This document shows positions 7,326 to 60,411 of a stretch of 64,000 nucleotides of DNA, one piece after another. The notes below the pieces were generated by a model. It was not told the DNA's origin. It did no database searches and saw only the letters and a list, made by a program, of their open reading frames with translations. The stretch is from assembly GCA_038326365.1 (NCBI GenBank), contig JBBQJY010000002.1, forward strand, positions 17,960-81,959. The letters are read 5' to 3'. Both the position numbers and the translations under genes were made by a program. Numbering within the stretch: position 1 is the first letter of the stretch; each line of letters opens with the position of its first letter. Source of the DNA: Candidatus Curtissbacteria bacterium (GTDB lineage Bacteria; Patescibacteriota; Microgenomatia; Curtissbacterales; GWA2-41-24).

Positions 7326-7399
7326 GGGCGCGTAGCTCAGCTGGTTAGAGCGTTACACTGATAATGTAAAGGTCCCAGGTTCGAATCCTGGCGCGCCCA
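7326..7399 (+). tRNA. tRNA-Ile (anticodon GAT)
   Basis: A cloverleaf 'GGGCGCGTAGCTCAGCTGGTTAGAGCG…CTGATAA…GGTTCGAATCC…GCGCGCCCA' can be read directly. The anticodon loop 'CTGATAA' gives GAT. Confidence 0.85.
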
Positions 7400-7419: not shown

Positions 7420-7491
7420 AGGCGCAGAGGGGAATCGAACCCCTGCATAGCCGTTTTGCAGACGGCCGCGTTACCTCTTCGCCACTGCGCC
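7420..7491 (-). tRNA. tRNA-Cys (anticodon GCA)
   Basis: The reverse complement reads 'GGCGCAGTGGCGAAGAGGTAACGC…TCTGCAAAA…GGTTCGATTCCCCTCTGCGCC'. The anticodon loop 'CTGCAAA' gives GCA. CCA is not encoded. Confidence 0.8.
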
Positions 7492-8565: not shown

Positions 8566-10015
<1,450 letters not shown>

Positions 10016-24815: not shown

Positions 24816-26555
24816 CTACTTTTTCTTATACTGATTTTCAAATAGCTTTTTCAGCTCATCTACTGTTGTTGCATCCTCTGCTCTCTTGTCCTCTTCTCGA
24901 AATTTGACAAGCCTCGGAAACCTCAATGCAAAACCTGTTTCCGTTTTTTCGTCCCATCCGGCAACGTGTATTGGCGATCTTGTTATTTCATCAGCATAAA
25001 TTTCCAAAACAACCTCAGGCTCTACCCAGTAAGTCGGCTCAACTTTGGACCTAACGCGGGCCGGCTTATGACTGACTCTCAATTTCTTGGCGATCTCATT
25101 TATTTTTCTAAACTCATCGTCAGTTAAACCCGTACCAAGTCTACTTATAGATTCAAAAACATCATCACGTTTGTTATAAATGCCAATCAATAGTCCCCCA
25201 ACCCCAAATTCCGTCCTTTTACCCTTTCCTGCATATACACCTAAAAGTACGCAATCAACAGTGTCTGTTAGATCTCCACTGCTTGCCCGCTTAAATTTAA
25301 TCCAATGAAAACCTCGCCCACCAGCTTTATATGGGGCATCTAATTTTTTAATCATCAAACCCTCCAAACCCTCACTTATGCACTCATTAAAGAATTCCAA
25401 TATTTCTTTGGCAGTAGAAATTATTCGTTGCTCTGCAATGCGAATGGTTATGTTTTCCCTGGAAACTACTTTTTCCAGCAGTTTTCTTCTCTCTGCTTCT
25501 ACTTTCCCAGTAATATCCTCACCATTTAAGTACAAAATATCAAAGGCAAAACTAACCAGTGGAAGCGCTTTAGCTGTTTCTTCTACCTTATATTTTCTTC
25601 TCCTCTTTGTAGTTTCTTGAAACGGCAAAAATTCCGAGGTTAACGGGTTATAAGCAATTGCTTCGCCTTCCATAATTACAGACTTTGCCCGAACTTCCTT
25701 CAAAACTCCAACTGCCAAATCAGGGAAAGAATGCGTCATGTCCTCTAAATTGCGTGAGAAAATCTCAACTTTGTCTCCATTTTTGTGGATTTGAACCCGG
25801 AAGCCATCAAATTTAGGTTCGGCCGCAAATTTGTCTCCCATGCGCTTAACAACTTCATCCGCATTGGGCATTCGCTCCGCAAGAGCAGGTCTAACCGGCT
25901 TACCGATTATGATTTTGACCGACGCCAAACCTTTTTCTCCACCTTTGTAAAAAATCTCGGCTACATATCCAAGATCGCTTGTCTTGTTGTAGGCATCTTC
26001 AATAACGGGACGCAGCTTTTTGTCTCCAGTTTTAGCAATCGAAAGCGCGTCCATAACCGTTGGGTCACCAATTCCCAACCTCAACGTTCCAAGGGGTATA
26101 TTTACAACATGTTTTACAGATTTTGGATCGAGCTTTTTTAGAAGCTCTGCCAGTGTGCCAACTTTTTTGTCAACCGTCCCTTCACCACTAAACTTAGCAA
26201 TTGTTAGAAGATTTTCAAAAACATCGGCAACAGATAAATTACCTGTGTGCTCGTGTTTCTTTGCCAAATCTTGTGCCGCCAAACCCATATTGCCAAGTTT
26301 TCTATAATCCTTAATTACCTCCTCTTTCGATTTGTTAAACGCACGGCCAATTGCAACCGCCACTAAATTCTCACTCATCCCAAATTCAATTGGCTCATAA
26401 AACGGCGCGACACGACCCTGAAGCAAATAACTGATTTTGCCAACTTCTACGCTTTCAGAGTGGCCAAAAAGATCCGCCATAATGTCGATCAGCTCTAAGC
26501 GTTTACTTGTTGCCTCTAATTTTTCCAGATATTCACTAAATTTTGAAAATTTCAT
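24816..26555 (-). CDS. ATP-dependent DNA ligase (archaeal/eukaryal LigB type)
   Basis: Motif I 'AEPKFDGFRVQIH' (KxDG) is preceded by an N-terminal DNA-binding domain and followed by an OB-fold. Confidence 0.85.
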   Translation of the reverse strand: MKFSKFSEYLEKLEATSKRLELIDIMADLFGHSESVEVGKISYLLQGRVAPFYEPIEFGMSENLVAVAIGRAFNKSKEEVIKDYRKLGNMGLAAQDLAKKHEHTGNLSVADVFENLLTIAKFSGEGTVDKKVGTLAELLKKLDPKSVKHVVNIPLGTLRLGIGDPTVMDALSIAKTGDKKLRPVIEDAYNKTSDLGYVAEIFYKGGEKGLASVKIIIGKPVRPALAERMPNADEVVKRMGDKFAAEPKFDGFRVQIHKNGDKVEIFSRNLEDMTHSFPDLAVGVLKEVRAKSVIMEGEAIAYNPLTSEFLPFQETTKRRRKYKVEETAKALPLVSFAFDILYLNGEDITGKVEAERRKLLEKVVSRENITIRIAEQRIISTAKEILEFFNECISEGLEGLMIKKLDAPYKAGGRGFHWIKFKRASSGDLTDTVDCVLLGVYAGKGKRTEFGVGGLLIGIYNKRDDVFESISRLGTGLTDDEFRKINEIAKKLRVSHKPARVRSKVEPTYWVEPEVVLEIYADEITRSPIHVAGWDEKTETGFALRFPRLVKFREEDKRAEDATTVDELKKLFENQYKKK

Positions 26556-39559: not shown

Positions 39560-40150
39560 TTATTTTCGAGCAACGTTACTTTTATGCTTAAGCCACGAAC
39601 GAAGAGCATATTCTCTTAAATCACCAAAACGCAAAATAAAATCTGGTACCAAATCTCCGCGATCTATTTTTTTCTTAACTTCTCCAATAAAAGCTTCACC
39701 AGTCAGCTCATCTATATAAGTATCTAAAGCTTCTCTTCTCAGACCCATGATACTAGCCCCCTCTATTCTAGCCTTAGCTTTTGCATCATCTTTATCTTTT
39801 GCAAGCACTAATATACGAATTCCCCTTTCTTTTTCAGCTATTGGCGCAACCCACGCACTAAAAGTTTCACCCTCCGGTGGCATGTGGCCTTCTTTAAAGT
39901 CTGGAGTAATACCGGGAGCATATATCGACTGGTACAAAAATCTTGACTGTTTACCCTCTCTATCTAAAACATTTGACACAATGTACGTCCTATCATCAAA
40001 ATCAGGAAACTGCTGAGATTCTTGAATTGCATGAGCAGTTGCTACACCATCTAATAATGGAAGTCGCCTAAATCTCTCTGGGAATATTGGTTTTAATTTT
40101 TCCTCAATATCCCGATAAGTTGCACCTTTTGCGTCTATTGACTCAACCAT
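39560..40150 (-). CDS. hypothetical protein (196 aa)
   Basis: ORF only. Confidence 0.3.
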   Translation of the reverse strand: MVESIDAKGATYRDIEEKLKPIFPERFRRLPLLDGVATAHAIQESQQFPDFDDRTYIVSNVLDREGKQSRFLYQSIYAPGITPDFKEGHMPPEGETFSAWVAPIAEKERGIRILVLAKDKDDAKAKARIEGASIMGLRREALDTYIDELTGEAFIGEVKKKIDRGDLVPDFILRFGDLREYALRSWLKHKSNVARK

Positions 40151-40169
40151 AGTGCGAAATTATATACCT

Positions 40170-41168
40170 TTAGGAGAAATATTCAATCTTCATAGCGCGC
40201 TTGACATCTTTTAGTGTCTTTTGGGCTTCTTCCCTAGCCTTTTTTGTTCCATCAACTAAAATCTTCTCAACTAGTCCGGGTTGTTTTTCAAATTCTGCTC
40301 TTCGTTTTCTAATGGGCGCGAGAAACTCTTCCAAAACATCAACCAGATACTGCTTAATTTCTACATCACGAACTGTACCCTTTCTATATTTATCTTTAAA
40401 TTCTTCAATTTTCGCTTTGTCACTTCCAAACGCATCCAGATAAACAAAAACAGGGTTACCCTCCACATTGCCCGGCTCGTCTCCATGAATTCGATTAGGA
40501 TCTGTATACATCCCCATTACTTTTTTCTTTAAATCGTCAGTGCTTTCTGAAAGAAAGATTGTATTGCCCAAACTTTTGCTCATTTTTGAACTTCCATCAG
40601 TTCCAGGTAGCTTTCCCACCCTTCCAATCAGCGCTTCTGGCTCGGGGAACAAGCCCTGTTTAATCATGTTAAATGTTCGGGCAATCTCCCTCGTCTGTTC
40701 TAAATGTGCTTCTTGATCCTTTCCAACCGGAACCAAATCTGCTTTAACGCACAAAATATCAGCGGCTTGATAAATGGGGTAATTAATAAATCCCAGACTG
40801 TATTGATCGCCCAGGCCCTTCATCTTGATCTCGTCTTTAATGGTTGGATTTCTTAAAGCTCTATTAAACCCGACGTACATGCTGAAAAGAGCAGCAAGTT
40901 CATAAATTTCCGGTACCTGCGACTCAGCAAAAAAAACTACGTTTTCTGGCTCTAATCCTGCCGAAATGTTATCAAGTAAAACCTGTTTTGTATTTTCAGC
41001 TATATCCTGGTAGTTGAGATTAAGAGTCGTCAAAGCATGAGTATCTGCCAAAATCACATATGTTTCGTACTCATGCTGAAGGTGAATACGGTTCTCCAGC
41101 GTCCCAACGTAATGCCCCAAATGCAGCTTACCTGTAGGAGTATCTCCAGTTAGTATTCTCTTTTTCAT
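40170..41168 (-). CDS. trpS: tryptophan--tRNA ligase
   Basis: The class-I 'TGDTPTGKLHLGHY' (HIGH) and 'KMSKS' motifs are present. The 332-aa size fits TrpRS rather than TyrRS. Confidence 0.75.
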   Translation of the reverse strand: MKKRILTGDTPTGKLHLGHYVGTLENRIHLQHEYETYVILADTHALTTLNLNYQDIAENTKQVLLDNISAGLEPENVVFFAESQVPEIYELAALFSMYVGFNRALRNPTIKDEIKMKGLGDQYSLGFINYPIYQAADILCVKADLVPVGKDQEAHLEQTREIARTFNMIKQGLFPEPEALIGRVGKLPGTDGSSKMSKSLGNTIFLSESTDDLKKKVMGMYTDPNRIHGDEPGNVEGNPVFVYLDAFGSDKAKIEEFKDKYRKGTVRDVEIKQYLVDVLEEFLAPIRKRRAEFEKQPGLVEKILVDGTKKAREEAQKTLKDVKRAMKIEYFS

Positions 41169-41186
41169 CTCCTAGTTGATTATAAC

Positions 41187-41462
41187 TTAATACAAATGAC
41201 CTCTCATCCTTTCTGTCACATAGTCATCTTTTATTGTCTTACAATCCTCGCATTTTTCTACATGAGAATTTAAATCATCCAAAAACTCATGAATACCCTT
41301 ACCTCGAACTCTAAAATCAATTACGCACATTCTTTCCACGAGCAAATCCTCAATAAGAATCTTGTCTGGATGTTCGCTCCCTTCCGGAATTACACGTAAG
41401 GCAGGACCCAAATCGGACAAATATTCAACTAAATGATCGCCTTCTTTACTCATAATTAACAC
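41187..41462 (-). CDS. hypothetical protein (91 aa, Cys-containing)
   Basis: ORF only. Confidence 0.25.
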   Translation of the reverse strand: MLIMSKEGDHLVEYLSDLGPALRVIPEGSEHPDKILIEDLLVERMCVIDFRVRGKGIHEFLDDLNSHVEKCEDCKTIKDDYVTERMRGHLY

Positions 41463-41486
41463 CTCCTTTCATACTTTTCTCCACTA

Positions 41487-41508
41487 AAAAACTCACCGAT
41501 TGGTGAGT
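41487..41508 (-). terminator. hairpin plus U-tract (rho-independent terminator-like) read on the minus strand
   Basis: 'CTCACC-gatt-GGTGAG' forms an inverted repeat, and an A6 run precedes it on the plus strand (U6 after the hairpin on minus). Confidence 0.3.
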
Positions 41509-41602
41509 TAAGGACTTTGGACGCGCTTAAACTACCAACCGAAGTTAGTCAGTTCTGCGCCACCAAGAGTTACTTCTTGCGTCCACAGATAAATTGTACT
41601 TG

Positions 41603-41633
41603 TTGACTTACTAGTTGTCAAAATGTCTATATT
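41603..41633 (+). promoter_or_regulatory. candidate sigma70-like promoter for the 41670 gene
   Basis: A -35-like 'TTGACT' is followed 17-19 nt later by 'TCTATATT', placed 35 nt upstream of the ATG. By eye only. Confidence 0.2.
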
Positions 41634-41669
41634 TGATTTCAAAAAATCAAAGATATAAAATTTGCCCCC

Positions 41670-42338
41670 ATGTCAGAAAAAAAGCCGGGAGCCGAAATAG
41701 CATTTCTTCATATCAGCCCTATTTATGCACCCTTAGCCCAAAAATGGCCAATAGATTTAGAAAAGTGGATCGCAGAACCAGAATGGAATGGACCGCATGT
41801 GATTGTATATATCACACCCGGATCTAACTCAATAAAAACTGAAAATGGTCCTATAACAGCCAAATTTCCCGAGTTTCAACCAGGGCTTATAAGACTTGGC
41901 GAAAATCACAAAGCAATCGCCCTTGCCAGAATTATCCACAGAAAAACAAAAGCAACAAACTCCAATACTTCTCAAGAACGAAAGTTAGTCCAAGACCGAA
42001 TCGACGGAAAATTAAAGCCAGAATCAAGTCTCGAAAAACAATTTGCCGTGTGTCACTTGGTGTTTACAGACTTGATCTCCCTAGATGGAGACGATTTGAG
42101 ACTGTGGCCTTTAAGCTCGCGAAAAAAGAAGCTCGAAAATTTTCTGTCCACACTCCGCGAAGGTCAATCAGAAATTTATCAGTCACCCTACTCAGCAGAT
42201 CTAGGCGCAATGATGCAAAAGGCAAAAAATCAAGGTTTTGCTGAAGTCGTCTTTAAGAGAATTGACAGTGAATATAGGTTGAAATCTGGGACAGACCATA
42301 ATTGGAAAAAATTCAAAACTGAACGAAATCCCAAATAG
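41670..42338 (+). CDS. ATP-dependent ligase-like nucleotidyltransferase-domain protein with degenerate motif I
   Basis: 'VFTDLISLDGDDLRLWPLSSRKKKL' matches ligase motif IIIa/IV and 'AEVVFKRIDSEYRLKSGTDHNWKKFK' matches motif V. The motif I position reads 'EPEWNGPHV' in place of 'EPKxDGxR'. Confidence 0.45.
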   Translation: MSEKKPGAEIAFLHISPIYAPLAQKWPIDLEKWIAEPEWNGPHVIVYITPGSNSIKTENGPITAKFPEFQPGLIRLGENHKAIALARIIHRKTKATNSNTSQERKLVQDRIDGKLKPESSLEKQFAVCHLVFTDLISLDGDDLRLWPLSSRKKKLENFLSTLREGQSEIYQSPYSADLGAMMQKAKNQGFAEVVFKRIDSEYRLKSGTDHNWKKFKTERNPK

Positions 42339-42774
42339 TATATTTCCCCACAGACAAGATAAACTTTTTTTGCGCCATCTCAAGTCCATGTTTTAAATCT
42401 CCAGAGCCCATATGCACATTTTGAAGATTCATAACATTATTATCTATATAAAGAGGCAGACCAACTAAAATTGGACAAACAGCACCAACAGCAACACCTA
42501 CAACTCGCAATACCTCCTCAGGCTTTGCCAATTCACTCTTGCCTCCAAACTTTGTTCTGATTTTTTTAAAATCCACGCGATCGCTGCCTCTGAGTGCCAA
42601 AGCTATAAAAGACCCGTCGGCAACTCGCACAATCAATGTCTTAACCACCTGATCCAGACTTATTCCAGCATTTACCACGTCGGCAACAGTAAAAGCCTTT
42701 TGGTCTAAGTTAACTACCCTAAAGGGCAGTTTTAGGTCCCGCAGGTGTCTCTCTATTTGTTTTAGGTTTGCCAC
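42313..42774 (-). CDS. YbaK/ProX-type aminoacyl-tRNA deacylase domain protein
   Basis: 'VKTLIVR…GSFIALALRGSDRVDFKKI' matches the YbaK fold. Confidence 0.65.
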   Translation of the reverse strand: MANLKQIERHLRDLKLPFRVVNLDQKAFTVADVVNAGISLDQVVKTLIVRVADGSFIALALRGSDRVDFKKIRTKFGGKSELAKPEEVLRVVGVAVGAVCPILVGLPLYIDNNVMNLQNVHMGSGDLKHGLEMAQKKFILSVGKYTIWDFVQF

Positions 42775-42997: not shown

Positions 42998-43303
42998 AAA
43001 AACCCGCCTATCTGGCGAGTCTTGTCTTGGTATTGGGTTGAAAAACCTACCTACAAAACTCGCCTTAGCGAGTAAAGTAGAAGAAAAAGGTTTTCAAACT
43101 AACCAACATGTACAAATGAGCAGACGCTTCCTAAACAAATAATAAGAGCTTTTCAGCTAATATAATAATAGCAACTTAGCAGATCAGTCTGCCCTCTGCT
43201 AAGCCTTTCACCTCAAAAGAGCATTACTCTTTTACCCCTAAATTATATCAATCCAAGACCGTAAGTGTCAACTTTTATGGCAGCAAGCCTACTCAAGTGC
43301 CAG

Positions 43304-43377
43304 TAGCAGGGGTGGGGATCGAACCCACGACCTTGGCGTTATGAGTGCCACGCTCTGACCGACTGAGCTACCCTGCC
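43304..43377 (-). tRNA. tRNA with anticodon CAT (elongator Met or Ile2-type)
   Basis: The reverse complement reads 'GGCAGGGTAGCTCAGTCGGTCAGAGCG…CTCATAA…GGTTCGATCCCCACCCCTGCTA'. CCA is not encoded. Confidence 0.8.
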
Positions 43378-43436: not shown

Positions 43437-44330
43437 TCAATACTCTTCATTGTCACCTGCCGCAATAACTTTCCAAGTTTTCTCTCCTGCACCTAAACCC
43501 TCATCCATAACCGTTTGGATAGTTGATGTATAAATTAGCATGCCGCCAATATATGCATCCGATATTCTTCTTTTAATATATTTGTCGATTTGGTTAGCCT
43601 TTTGGCAGGTAGGGAAGATTAAAAGCAGTGTTGGAAACTTGTAGGCAAGCCCCTTGATTTGTTTCCCATCACTTTCCTCGTAGGCTTCAATGTATTTATC
43701 TATTTTGTAACGTATTGCATACCTGGGGACGTGCGGATCAAAAAGGATAATATACCAGGAAGATTCTTCAATTTTGTCTTGGGTGACGAGTGACTTTTCA
43801 AAATGGGCATCGGGAATTAAGTCCTGGATATCCCTGAATTCAACTTCCCCTGTTTGGTGAATTTTCTCATAAGTCCAGATTTCGGATTTTGTTTCAAAGA
43901 AATATTCCCTGTCTTTGTTCTTGTCAGCTTTTTCAATTCCCTTAAACTGGAGGTAGATGTCAAAGATAGTTGTCGAGTGGTCTATGAAGTTTTGCGATGC
44001 GAGTCTGTCCTGATAGTACTTTTTAAGGTACTTTAAATCAACAAAATCTTCAAAACCCAAACTCTCCATTCCTCCCCATCTAGCACGGATGATTCCATTG
44101 TTTCCTAGGTAATAAATGGCTGGCTTGGTATTTTCCAGCAGCTTAGTTGAATAGATTCTACCAAGATATCCTTTCTCAACCAGCTCCTTTAGCCATTTGT
44201 TAAGCCTCGATGGGTCTTTATGCTCAATAAGTGTCTGCAGCTGTCTTCTTGTTATGAATCTAAACCTAAATACCAAATCAACTATTTCTTCAAGCTTCAC
44301 TGATATCTCAGGTTGTTCTCTAAAGTTCAT
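43437..44330 (-). CDS. hypothetical protein with N-terminal winged-HTH (replication-relaxation-like)
   Basis: The N-terminal 'FITRRQLQTLIEHKD…NKWLKELVEKGYLGR' looks like a wHTH. It is flanked by two tRNAs. Confidence 0.3.
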   Translation of the reverse strand: MNFREQPEISVKLEEIVDLVFRFRFITRRQLQTLIEHKDPSRLNKWLKELVEKGYLGRIYSTKLLENTKPAIYYLGNNGIIRARWGGMESLGFEDFVDLKYLKKYYQDRLASQNFIDHSTTIFDIYLQFKGIEKADKNKDREYFFETKSEIWTYEKIHQTGEVEFRDIQDLIPDAHFEKSLVTQDKIEESSWYIILFDPHVPRYAIRYKIDKYIEAYEESDGKQIKGLAYKFPTLLLIFPTCQKANQIDKYIKRRISDAYIGGMLIYTSTIQTVMDEGLGAGEKTWKVIAAGDNEEY

Positions 44331-44598: not shown

Positions 44599-44773
44599 TA
44601 AGCTCGTGCGTGAGCAAAGCCTATTTATTTAAGGTATTTTTGATAGTAATTGTTTTTTTTAGAAGATATAAGATTCGGAAAGATACTCTTTTTCCTTGGA
44701 TGTATCCGAACACCACAATTAGCCAGTACTTTCAAGCTATTTTGGATATTCGACACGAAAGCGTCTCACTCTG

Positions 44774-44844
44774 TAGCGGGGGCGGGAGTCGAACCCACTT
44801 CTGGAGATTATGAGCCTCCCGAGATGCCGTTTCTCTACCCCGCG
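44774..44844 (-). tRNA. tRNA with anticodon CAT and an initiator-like acceptor stem
   Basis: The reverse complement reads 'CGCGGGGTAGAGAAACGGCATCTCGGGAGGCTCATAATCTCC…GTGGGTTCGACTCCCGCCCCCGCTA'. The 5' 'CGCGGGG' and 3' 'CCCCGC', the mismatched C1·U72 and the A11:U24 pair are as in bacterial tRNA-fMet. The anticodon stem lacks the canonical three G-C pairs. Confidence 0.55.
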
Positions 44845-45436: not shown

Positions 45437-46312
45437 ATGAAAAAATTAGACGACGCACACAAAGAATTTGTCGACCATTTAAAAGGCAAAAAAAGAGCCT
45501 CGGCTACTGTGCTTGCTTACGGCAAGGACATAGAACAACTCGTTAAATTTTTAAACAAGCTTCAAAAGTTGCATGTTCACGAGGTAAAACCGGAAGACAT
45601 CAGGAGCTTTTTAGAAAAACTTCAAACTACGGGTTACACACAAAAATCACTGTCTCGCAAGCTAAATTCAACGAAAACTTTCTTCCGTTTTCTAAAAATC
45701 AAAGAATACATTACAGACGACCCAGCTTCCTTGGTCGAACACCCTCGATTTGAAACCAAACCACCCCGAATATTAACTCCAATTGAATATCGTGCTCTGC
45801 GCGACGCAGCCCGAGACGACGTCAGAATTGCCGCAATTATCGAAATTCTTCTACAAACCGGCGTTCGAATTGGTGAATTGGCGAACCTTAGAATCGATGA
45901 TGTTTTCTTCAGCGAGGAAACCAAAGAAGGCCATCTTTACGTTCGGCCTCAAGAAAATCGCCCGGAGAGAACAGTTCCCTTAAACAAAGCAGCCGAATCT
46001 GCCCTCAGAAAATACTTAGAAGTCAGACCTAAAACTACAAATCGAGCTCTGTTTGTGACCAAAACAGGCAAACCGCTCCTTGTCAGAAACATCAGAACGG
46101 CAATCGACCGATATTACAAAAAGGCAGGTATAACAGGCGCTAAAGTTAACGACCTAAGACACACTTGGGTTGCTCACCATCTCTCAAGCGGAGCATCACT
46201 TGTTCTTATTTCCAAAATTGCCGGCCACAAAAGACTTTCTACAACAGAAAGATATCTTTCGCTCATCCAGCCTCCAAAAGGCGAGGAAAAACTTAGACTC
46301 GAACAGCTCTAA
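45437..46312 (+). CDS. tyrosine site-specific recombinase (XerC/XerD/phage-integrase family)
   Basis: The catalytic box 'LRHTWVAHHL' and 'AGHKRLSTTERYLSL' (R…HxxR…Y) are preceded by an N-terminal SAM-like domain. Confidence 0.8.
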   Translation: MKKLDDAHKEFVDHLKGKKRASATVLAYGKDIEQLVKFLNKLQKLHVHEVKPEDIRSFLEKLQTTGYTQKSLSRKLNSTKTFFRFLKIKEYITDDPASLVEHPRFETKPPRILTPIEYRALRDAARDDVRIAAIIEILLQTGVRIGELANLRIDDVFFSEETKEGHLYVRPQENRPERTVPLNKAAESALRKYLEVRPKTTNRALFVTKTGKPLLVRNIRTAIDRYYKKAGITGAKVNDLRHTWVAHHLSSGASLVLISKIAGHKRLSTTERYLSLIQPPKGEEKLRLEQL

Positions 46313-60335: not shown

Positions 60336-60411
60336 GGGCGCATAGCTCAGCGGTTAGAGCATCACTCTTATAAGGTGAGGGTCCTTGGTTCAAATCCAAG
60401 TGCGCCCACCA
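60336..60411 (+). tRNA. tRNA-Ile with anticodon TAT (UAU), CCA encoded
   Basis: 'GGGCGCATAGCTCAGCGGTTAGAGCA-TCACT-CTTATAA-GGTGA-GGGTC-CTTGGTTCAAATCCAAG-TGCGCCC-A-CCA' folds with the anticodon stem paired and the loop 'CTTATAA' giving TAT. Confidence 0.8.

Follow-up and report, generated by a model that had tools for sequence, protein, structure and literature searches.

The window, by which we mean the whole 64-kb stretch of DNA analysed in this study, carries a gene for a stand-alone ligase nucleotidyltransferase (NTase) domain that displays the pattern by which pseudoenzymes are recognised, i.e., the catalytic residues have been lost while the fold has been conserved across orthologs, as judged from sequence comparison and synteny. 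We lean, with modest confidence, towards regarding this gene as a pseudo-ligase, an NTase scaffold that would neither bind nor transfer AMP and that selection may have kept for a non-catalytic role. What is apparently new here, going by the sequences compared, is a degenerate and syntenically conserved clade inside a Patescibacteria family of NTase-only proteins; the superfamily itself is known.

Homology of the 222-aa protein to ATP-dependent ligases

The CDS (P0001; positions 41670..42338, + strand) starts with ATG, ends with TAG and encodes 222 aa, precisely as the first-pass annotation of this DNA had it, and all peptide strings quoted there were found in the translation. The remaining five frames across the same interval hold short ORFs only. 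The similarity to ligases, which that annotation had proposed, was corroborated by profile, structure-prediction and fold searches. The protein scored 32.1 bits against the Pfam model PF01068 (DNA_ligase_A_M), above the gathering cut-off of 26.2, and matched a dozen NCBIfam ligase models. The best of these, TIGR02779 (NHEJ ligase domain; E = 1.7e-15), aligned residues 29-219 of the protein with model positions 12-187 of 302, that is, with the NTase half only, and the score of 57 bits lies under the equivalog cut-off of 227.75. An AlphaFold2 model generated from the family alignment had a pLDDT of 88.2 and a pTM of 0.86, and in Foldseek the PDB entries that the model matched best were NTase domains, namely those found in archaeal ligases, in human Lig1 and in M. 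tuberculosis LigD, with E-values between 1e-11 and 1e-9. Neither an OB nor a DNA-binding domain is present, in agreement with the annotation; the protein stops 6 residues past motif V.

Active-site motifs

The motifs were compared with those of the 25 nearest relatives, which were aligned first, and later with those of 157 homologs. In the phmmer alignment, the query segment kWiaEpEWNGphviv fell on qWafEgKWDGyRllv of Mtb LigD, so that the sequence at motif I (41775..41798, + strand) is E36-P-E38-W-N40-G41-P-H43 rather than E-x-K-x-[N/D]-G-x-R. The nucleophilic Lys is replaced by Glu38 (codon GAA, 41781-41783), the motif I Asp by Asn40 and the Arg by His43. The K-to-E and D-to-N substitutions pointed out in the annotation were thus recovered in the alignment on Mtb LigD and 25 family members, and neither the alignment nor an upstream start brings a different Lys into motif I, as an in-frame stop occurs 9 codons 5' of the ATG. 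The D-to-N change, which had been listed as a second sign of inactivation, is present but not peculiar to the window protein, Asn being the majority state (13 of the 25 family members). Among the sequences aligned, Asn in motif I is family-typical and hence no evidence of inactivation.

The motif III position (41916..41936, + strand) reads I83-A-L-A-R87-I-I in place of (I/V)-L-D-G-E-I-(I/V); both the Asp and the Glu have been lost, LDGE being replaced by A84-L-A-R87 (residues 84-87). A query-specific 5-residue insertion follows, and the pLDDT is low at 94-96. In motif IIIa (42063..42089, + strand; F132-T133-D-L-I-S-L-D-G140), Thr133 takes the place of the family-invariant Phe that stacks on the adenine, while the scaffold residues D134, D139 and G140 are retained. 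Motif IV (42237..42260, + strand; F190-A-E-V-V-F-K196-R, residues 190-197) has A191-E192 for Glu-Gly and retains Lys196, and motif V (42303..42317, + strand; W212-K-K214-F-K216, residues 212-216) is retained. Motifs IIIa, IV and V are therefore recognisable, as had been claimed, but their labels need to be shifted: the string beginning FTDLISLDG, which had been read as IIIa/IV, is IIIa alone, and the string running from AEVVFKR to NWKKFK comprises IV and V.

Altogether, of the 14 columns assigned to catalysis or to the nucleotide pocket, the window protein has substitutions at 10 and matches at four, so that the putative inactivation does not depend on the single-base K-to-E change alone. These losses, common to the positional orthologs described below, in which the scaffold appears constrained, support the proposal that the protein may be catalytically dead or repurposed. 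We infer that the window protein would not be adenylylated.

The NTase-only family of approximately 220 aa

When 1.84 billion representatives were scanned exhaustively with HMMER, 200 homologs were obtained, the closest of which was 36% identical to the window protein, and no relative above this identity was found among ~15 billion public proteins. A word-indexed search of 5.8 billion clusters returned no match besides the protein itself, and word-indexed searches for closer orthologs returned the protein itself, known family members and LigD fragments only. The best non-self homologs (E = 2e-17 to 1e-10) cover residues ~13-217, and the nearest ~25 are 215-227 aa long and align end to end. The window protein, encoded on an 83-kb NCBI contig, is a singleton cluster, and so is every other member of the family.

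The proteins of this family share an N-terminal extension, carry all five NTase motifs in typical members, end directly after motif V and lack an OB domain. One member, P0007, corresponds to MBI3289855.1, which is annotated in NCBI as a 'hypothetical protein' of Candidatus Microgenomates. The window protein belongs to the family by its full-length alignment, its end past motif V and its scaffold columns, and departs from it in motifs I, III, IIIa and IV, which are intact in typical members; against its four matches in 14 columns, the 30 canonical members match on average at 93%.

According to the main review of ligases, the smallest scaffold consists of NT+OB, and motif VI, residing in the OB/C-terminal domain, is required in step 1; the review names no NT-only class. 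A construct of KREL1 comprising the NTase domain only did not auto-adenylylate. We found no description of an NT-only ligase family or of ligase pseudoenzymes within the literature searched, which agrees with the remark in the first-pass annotation that pseudo-ligases are not a described family. Judging from the sequences retrieved, the stand-alone ligase-like proteins of ~220 aa apparently constitute an undescribed family of Patescibacteria (Microgenomates).

Positional orthologs and their shared degeneration

The gene order in the window is FtsH, p196, TrpRS and p91 (all on the - strand), the ligase-like gene (+), YbaK (-) and, further on, XerC. The ybaK/tRNA_edit gene (42313-42774, - strand) is convergent with the ligase-like CDS and overlaps its 3' end by 26 nt. 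The same gene order was found in locus L002, where the flanking genes are 72% (FtsH), 57% (TrpRS) and 52% (YbaK) identical to those of the window and the ligase-like gene (P0016) is 28% identical; the ligase-like gene is evolving much faster than its neighbours. Loci L089 and L090, with P0050, have the same order followed by DivIC, XerC and ATP synthase, and in L091 the gene for P0046 is convergent with, and overlaps, ybaK as in the window. P0047 (L092) probably occupies the locus of the window gene as well. Thus, at least three, and probably four, other degenerate members reside at an FtsH-TrpRS-x-<gene>-YbaK locus in distantly related genomes. The fully canonical P0003 (L086, with two small ORFs, DivIC, XerC and ATP synthase) is probably also located at this locus.

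Whether orthologs keep the motif I Lys had been proposed as a check. The Lys is kept in only one of the five positional orthologs, as opposed to all 25 of the nearest family members; the residue at this position is E in the window protein, K in P0016, R in P0046, E in P0047 and D in P0050. Position 43 is likewise variable across the five orthologs (H, H, P, G and R), His being common to the window protein and P0016. Among the five degenerate members, the catalytic or pocket residues K38, R43 and E87 are each kept in one and D85 in two, and F133, E191 and G192 in none, Thr133 being present in three; the motif V lysines are retained in just one or two. The scaffold residues P27, G41, F66, D134, D139, G140, L143, R151, L155 and Y202 are, on the other hand, kept in all five, and W33, E36, H80, G98, R110, K152, S200 and W212 in four. 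The loss of F133, E191 and G192 in all five members, together with the Thr133 found in three, suggests that the five lineages diverged only after the adenine pocket had been taken apart. Nevertheless, a crude NJ tree did not group P0016 with the other degenerate members, a placement in which long-branch effects are likely, and a single ancestral inactivation is therefore unproven.

In a survey of 80 loci that were located in reference genomes through their TrpRS, no additional ligase-like gene turned up, and in none of 25 related Patescibacteria reference genomes does a ligase-like ORF lie 5 kb or less from trpS. In L022 and L023, ybaK directly adjoins trpS, and in L015 and L016 a different gene occupies the spot. 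Because the gene is missing from the locus in these closest reference genomes, it appears to be dispensable in some lineages.

Probable selection on the scaffold

We divided the alignment into 75 variable columns, 53 family-conserved non-catalytic (scaffold) columns and 14 catalytic columns. The last class was partly picked post hoc (L84 and F217 were added), and the textbook residues alone give the same pattern. At the variable columns, identity was 0.10 between degenerate members, 0.10 between canonical members and 0.10 between degenerate and canonical members, indicating that those sites are saturated. At the scaffold columns, identity was 0.56 between degenerate members versus 0.63 between canonical members, and at the catalytic columns it was 0.16 versus 0.89. 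The window protein itself agrees with the canonical consensus at 81% of the scaffold columns (the mean of canonical members being 77%) and at 29% of the catalytic columns (Fisher's test, P = 3.7e-4). ORFs of 214-240 aa have been maintained in the five lineages. Contig pairs bearing identical proteins were 100% identical in DNA and hence uninformative for dN/dS; it is from the column-wise conservation only that the window gene can be taken to be under continued purifying selection.

Expression signals

A promoter-like site matching the consensus, TTGATT-17-TAAAAT (41633..41661, + strand), ends 8 nt 5' of the ATG, and no Shine-Dalgarno sequence precedes the ligase-like gene. A comparable -10 element (GATATAAAAT, TATAAT or TAAAAT) was found ~7-12 nt before the start codons of the orthologs in L002, L089, L085, L092 and L088, and the -10 element is likewise close to the start codon in p196, trpS and similar neighbours. 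The ligase-like gene is monocistronic and lies on the strand opposite to all its neighbours. These consensus-level matches are consistent with a leaderless or near-leaderless mRNA transcribed from a promoter of its own, which would have been maintained among the orthologs. The upstream intergenic region gave no Rfam match that would point to a regulatory RNA.

The complete ligase of the window and the neighbouring genes

The window also holds a 579-aa ATP-dependent DNA ligase with three domains (DBD, NTase and OB; 24816-26555, - strand), in which Lys248 of motif I is intact. This is the complete LigB-type ligase that the annotation had recognised at the same position, and its motifs I (AEPKFDGFR), IV and V are all intact. 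The 222-aa protein had been taken for a paralog of this ligase, but the two are not close: the 579-aa ligase scored 96 bits against the family HMM as opposed to 208 bits for the window protein, whose family is a different one, LigD/LigC-like and NTase-only. This distant relation leads us to reject a recent duplication of the 579-aa ligase as the source of the gene.

A companion OB-fold gene had also been suggested as something to look for. In a search with an OB-domain HMM built from 42 OB/motif VI C-termini, the 579-aa ligase was the sole ligase of the window bearing OB/motif VI, and no companion was detected beyond it in the window, nor any in 12 family loci. No Ku or PrimPol was found by Pfam in ten window genes (nine neighbours and the 579-aa ligase) or in the 12 family loci, and no gene, be it for Ku, a polymerase or any other protein, is conserved beside the family members across these loci. 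The family neighbourhoods are diverse, with dnaE/NUDIX beside P0065, for example, and a defence-like cluster around P0007. A small divergent upstream ORF does co-occur with the ligase-like gene; these ORFs (p91, p100, p118 and p98) gave no Pfam or OB signal, and their mutual similarity is weak. We also considered, and rejected, a phage or defence origin, as the degenerate proteins had no PHROG or PADLOC matches, and the phage matches in tblastn and BFVD were ordinary two-domain ligases.

Comparison with known systems

LigD/LigC (TIGR02779; PDB 1vs0 and 6nhz) gave the best profile match to the window protein, the N-terminal part, motif I included, aligning residue for residue and the NTase fold being the same (Foldseek E ~1e-9). 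Unlike LigD/LigC, the window protein has no OB domain, motif VI or Lys nucleophile, degeneration has affected its motifs III, IIIa and IV, and no Ku or polymerase/primase partner was found among the neighbours scanned. With the Microgenomates proteins of ~220 aa (e.g., P0005, P0003 and P0007), the window protein shares length, N-terminal extension, end past motif V, Asn in motif I, occurrence as a solitary gene and a leaderless-type promoter architecture; however, typical members keep the K, R, DGE, F, EG and K.K residues, most of which have been lost from the window protein and its positional orthologs. The likeness to Lig1/archaeal-type ('LigB') ligases resides in the NTase superfamily fold, archaeal ligases being the top Foldseek matches, whereas the LigB of the window possesses DBD, NTase and OB domains with intact motifs and is a distant relation.

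The kinetoplastid RNA-editing ligases KREL1/2, together with KREPA, resemble the present case in that a ligase catalytic domain has no OB domain in cis, and an OB domain has been proposed to act in trans; they set a precedent for an NTase module that functions with no OB domain fused to it. The KRELs are, in contrast to the window protein, active enzymes of the Rnl2 type that keep the Lys (K87) and have a C-terminal equivalent of motif VI. To pseudoenzymes in general the window protein is similar in the selective loss of catalytic residues and the preservation of fold residues across orthologs, albeit no pseudoenzyme has been described for the DNA-ligase NTase domain in the literature searched.

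Possible origin and alternative explanations

The history of the gene may be pictured as follows. The gene would have originated in the Patescibacteria (Microgenomates) family of ~220-aa NTase-only ligase-like proteins, the typical members of which have five motifs. In the lineage marked by the order FtsH, ORF, TrpRS, small ORF, <gene> and YbaK, the motif IIIa Phe and the motif IV Glu-Gly would have been lost, consistent with their absence from all five members, and at a later step the Lys and Arg of motif I, along with the Asp and Glu of motif III, would have drifted in most members of the lineage. As for the present role, we can only speculate that the basic residues which motifs IV and V still carry (K196, R197, K213, K214 and K216, the lysines being phosphate-contacting; the window protein has a pI of 9.4), together with a conserved surface, bind a phosphate-bearing ligand or a partner protein, the ligand being, for example, a nucleic-acid end. 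The protein might then serve as a binder, a competitor or a regulator and perform no chemistry. The pI of the degenerate orthologs ranges from 5.9 to 10.0 and is thus not conserved, which weakens the case for a common nucleic-acid-binding role and leaves a protein-partner or regulatory role, no less speculative, equally open. It is somewhat doubtful, yet attractive to propose, that the syntenic clade has abandoned adenylylation entirely and represents the first DNA-ligase pseudoenzyme, a non-catalytic binder or regulator of, e.g., nucleic-acid ends or the single full-length ATP-dependent ligase of the cell.

The gene might instead be a decaying relic, the function of which has been lost and which is drifting to deletion, in which case the intact ORF would be transient and the product inert. 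We consider this unlikely, albeit the patchy presence around trpS in related Patescibacteria reference genomes, the 28% identity to the positional ortholog in L002 (P0016) against 52-72% for the flanking genes, the singleton clusters of all members and the lack of a Shine-Dalgarno sequence would all fit. Neutral drift would randomise both classes of columns and bring in stops or frameshifts; the scaffold columns, conserved as in intact members with the free columns having reached saturation at 10% identity, therefore count against decay. So do the intact ORFs of the five lineages with their confident predicted fold, as well as the conserved promoter architecture, the absence of a Shine-Dalgarno sequence being shared with housekeeping neighbours such as trpS. 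The genomes are, moreover, compact, with gene overlaps of 4-26 nt at the locus. Less probable than decay is an enzyme with a non-canonical chemistry, which would work on pre-adenylylated ends (as a step-3-only sealer or a de-adenylase) or employ another nucleophile (His43) or another nucleotide. In the Chlorella virus ligase, Lys-to-Ala mutants retain the ability to seal pre-adenylylated nicks, which speaks for such an activity, as do the retention of Lys196 (motif IV), Lys214 and Lys216 (both motif V) in the window protein and the replacement of the motif I Arg by His in two orthologs. Nevertheless, the AMP pocket appears to be dismantled (F133 and Glu-Gly lost in five of five, the motif III Glu in four of five), no replacement residue is conserved at positions 38 and 43 across the orthologs, the motif V lysines recur in so few of them, and neither OB domain nor motif VI is present.

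Two further explanations would restore a conventional ligase, and both have far less in their favour than the pseudo-ligase. In a split ligase, the OB/motif VI module would be supplied in trans from another gene, as proposed for kinetoplastid KREL/KREPA. The entire family is devoid of OB domains, an in-trans OB model does exist for KREL1/KREPA2, and our view is limited to 64 kb of the genome; such a module, however, might rescue the canonical members but not the window protein, which has neither nucleophile nor pocket, and with no separate OB gene detected by HMM in the window or the 12 family loci, and no conserved neighbour gene, we regard the split as very improbable. Alternatively, the K-to-E change (AAA to GAA, one base) could have arisen from faulty sequencing or assembly of an otherwise active gene, as one transition, at 41781, is all that a return to Lys would take. 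This is scarcely credible: nine further catalytic or pocket positions are substituted, an identical protein occurs in the independent Logan assembly of run SRR19962015, and positional orthologs have D, R or E at the Lys site. The loss across several motifs effectively refutes the artefact.

Implications

Few enzymes have been studied as thoroughly as DNA ligases, and their classification presumes an NT+OB core and an invariant motif I lysine. The window protein lacks defining features of a ligase, namely the Lys, motif III and the OB domain. If the pseudo-ligase interpretation is correct, an NTase-only family with a clade devoid of the active site would constitute a non-enzymatic branch of the ligase superfamily, and the clade would show, as an experiment of nature, what a ligase NTase scaffold is able to do when deprived of AMP chemistry. 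The case is also a caution that automated assignments of PF01068 proteins as 'ATP-dependent DNA ligase' can overstate the DNA-repair capacity of reduced CPR genomes. Pseudoenzymes are common across enzyme families, and the source organisms of the present one are uncultured. The window contains a bacterial 16S rRNA gene at 8566-10015, and its TrpRS, FtsH and XerC are nearest to those of Patescibacteria MAGs labelled Curtissbacteria, Levyibacteriota or Woesebacteria.

Nucleophile loss and the nucleotide-binding pocket

In the ligase-like protein of the window, the motif I Lys is replaced by Glu38 (41781-41783) and the motif III Glu by Arg87 (41928-41930), so that the two charges are reciprocally swapped. 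Judging from the sequence, these residues could form a putative salt bridge, Glu38-Arg87, filling the former AMP pocket. Motif I without Lys also turns up sporadically among longer LigD-like homologs (P0121, P0133, P0052 and P0141). It reads EPEYDGVR in P0121 (567 aa), in which the remaining motifs are all intact, and ERDWEGRR in P0133 (693 aa). Loss of the nucleophile may be recurrent among bacterial ATP-dependent ligase homologs.

Genomic context of the family

In the syntenic loci, the ligase-like gene always occurs next to a small divergent ORF, a possible functional partner, which is found at 41187-41462 on the minus strand of the window (p91), at 4869-5171 in L002 and at 5446-5802 in L089. 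The products are 91-118 aa long across loci and have no Pfam match, and the copies in the window and L089 are only weakly similar to each other. Both the small ORF and the ligase-like gene are absent from the two reference genomes in which ybaK directly abuts trpS (L022 and L023). Outside the trpS locus, the neighbourhoods of family members differ widely. For instance, the Lys-less P0065 (L093, 6001-6672) is divergent from dnaE, encoding the pol III alpha subunit, with a NUDIX gene downstream, and the canonical P0007 (L083, 6001-6654) adjoins a defence-like cluster of HNH, PDDEXK, SduA_C and ResIII genes.

Putative regulatory signals

The minus strand of 41463-41669, immediately 5' of p91 and trpS, carries a strong promoter-like site (TTGACA-17-TACAAT, 41621->41593, 11/12 matches) and, ~80 nt past it, a hairpin that has a T-run and resembles a terminator (41509->41480). 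The region looks like a putative attenuator or regulatory leader of trpS, and had no Rfam match, T-box included. We also inspected start signals in 39560-41670 of the window and in the family loci L002, L085, L088, L089 and L092. TATAAT -10-like elements end ~7-12 nt 5' of the start codons of the ligase-like gene, trpS and p196, the ORF between the FtsH and TrpRS genes, and genes with such elements lack a Shine-Dalgarno sequence. As a strong AGGAGG precedes other genes in the same regions (e.g., p91), the sequences suggest that this lineage mixes leaderless and Shine-Dalgarno-led genes.

Other features of the window

Two tRNA-Met(CAT) genes (43303-43377 and 44773-44844) flank a Replic_Relax-family gene (43437-44330), all on the minus strand. 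Because the Replic_Relax-family gene is missing from the otherwise syntenic L089, it may be a small insertion or mobile-element remnant. The XerC-like integrase gene that follows (45437-46312) is probably housekeeping, as it is 81-83% identical in relatives with synteny kept. Further tRNA genes lie at 7326-7399 (+), 7420-7491 (-) and 60336-60408 (+). The bacterial 16S rRNA gene (8566-10015, minus strand) is only 1450 nt long, yet matches the Rfam model in full (positions 1-1533).
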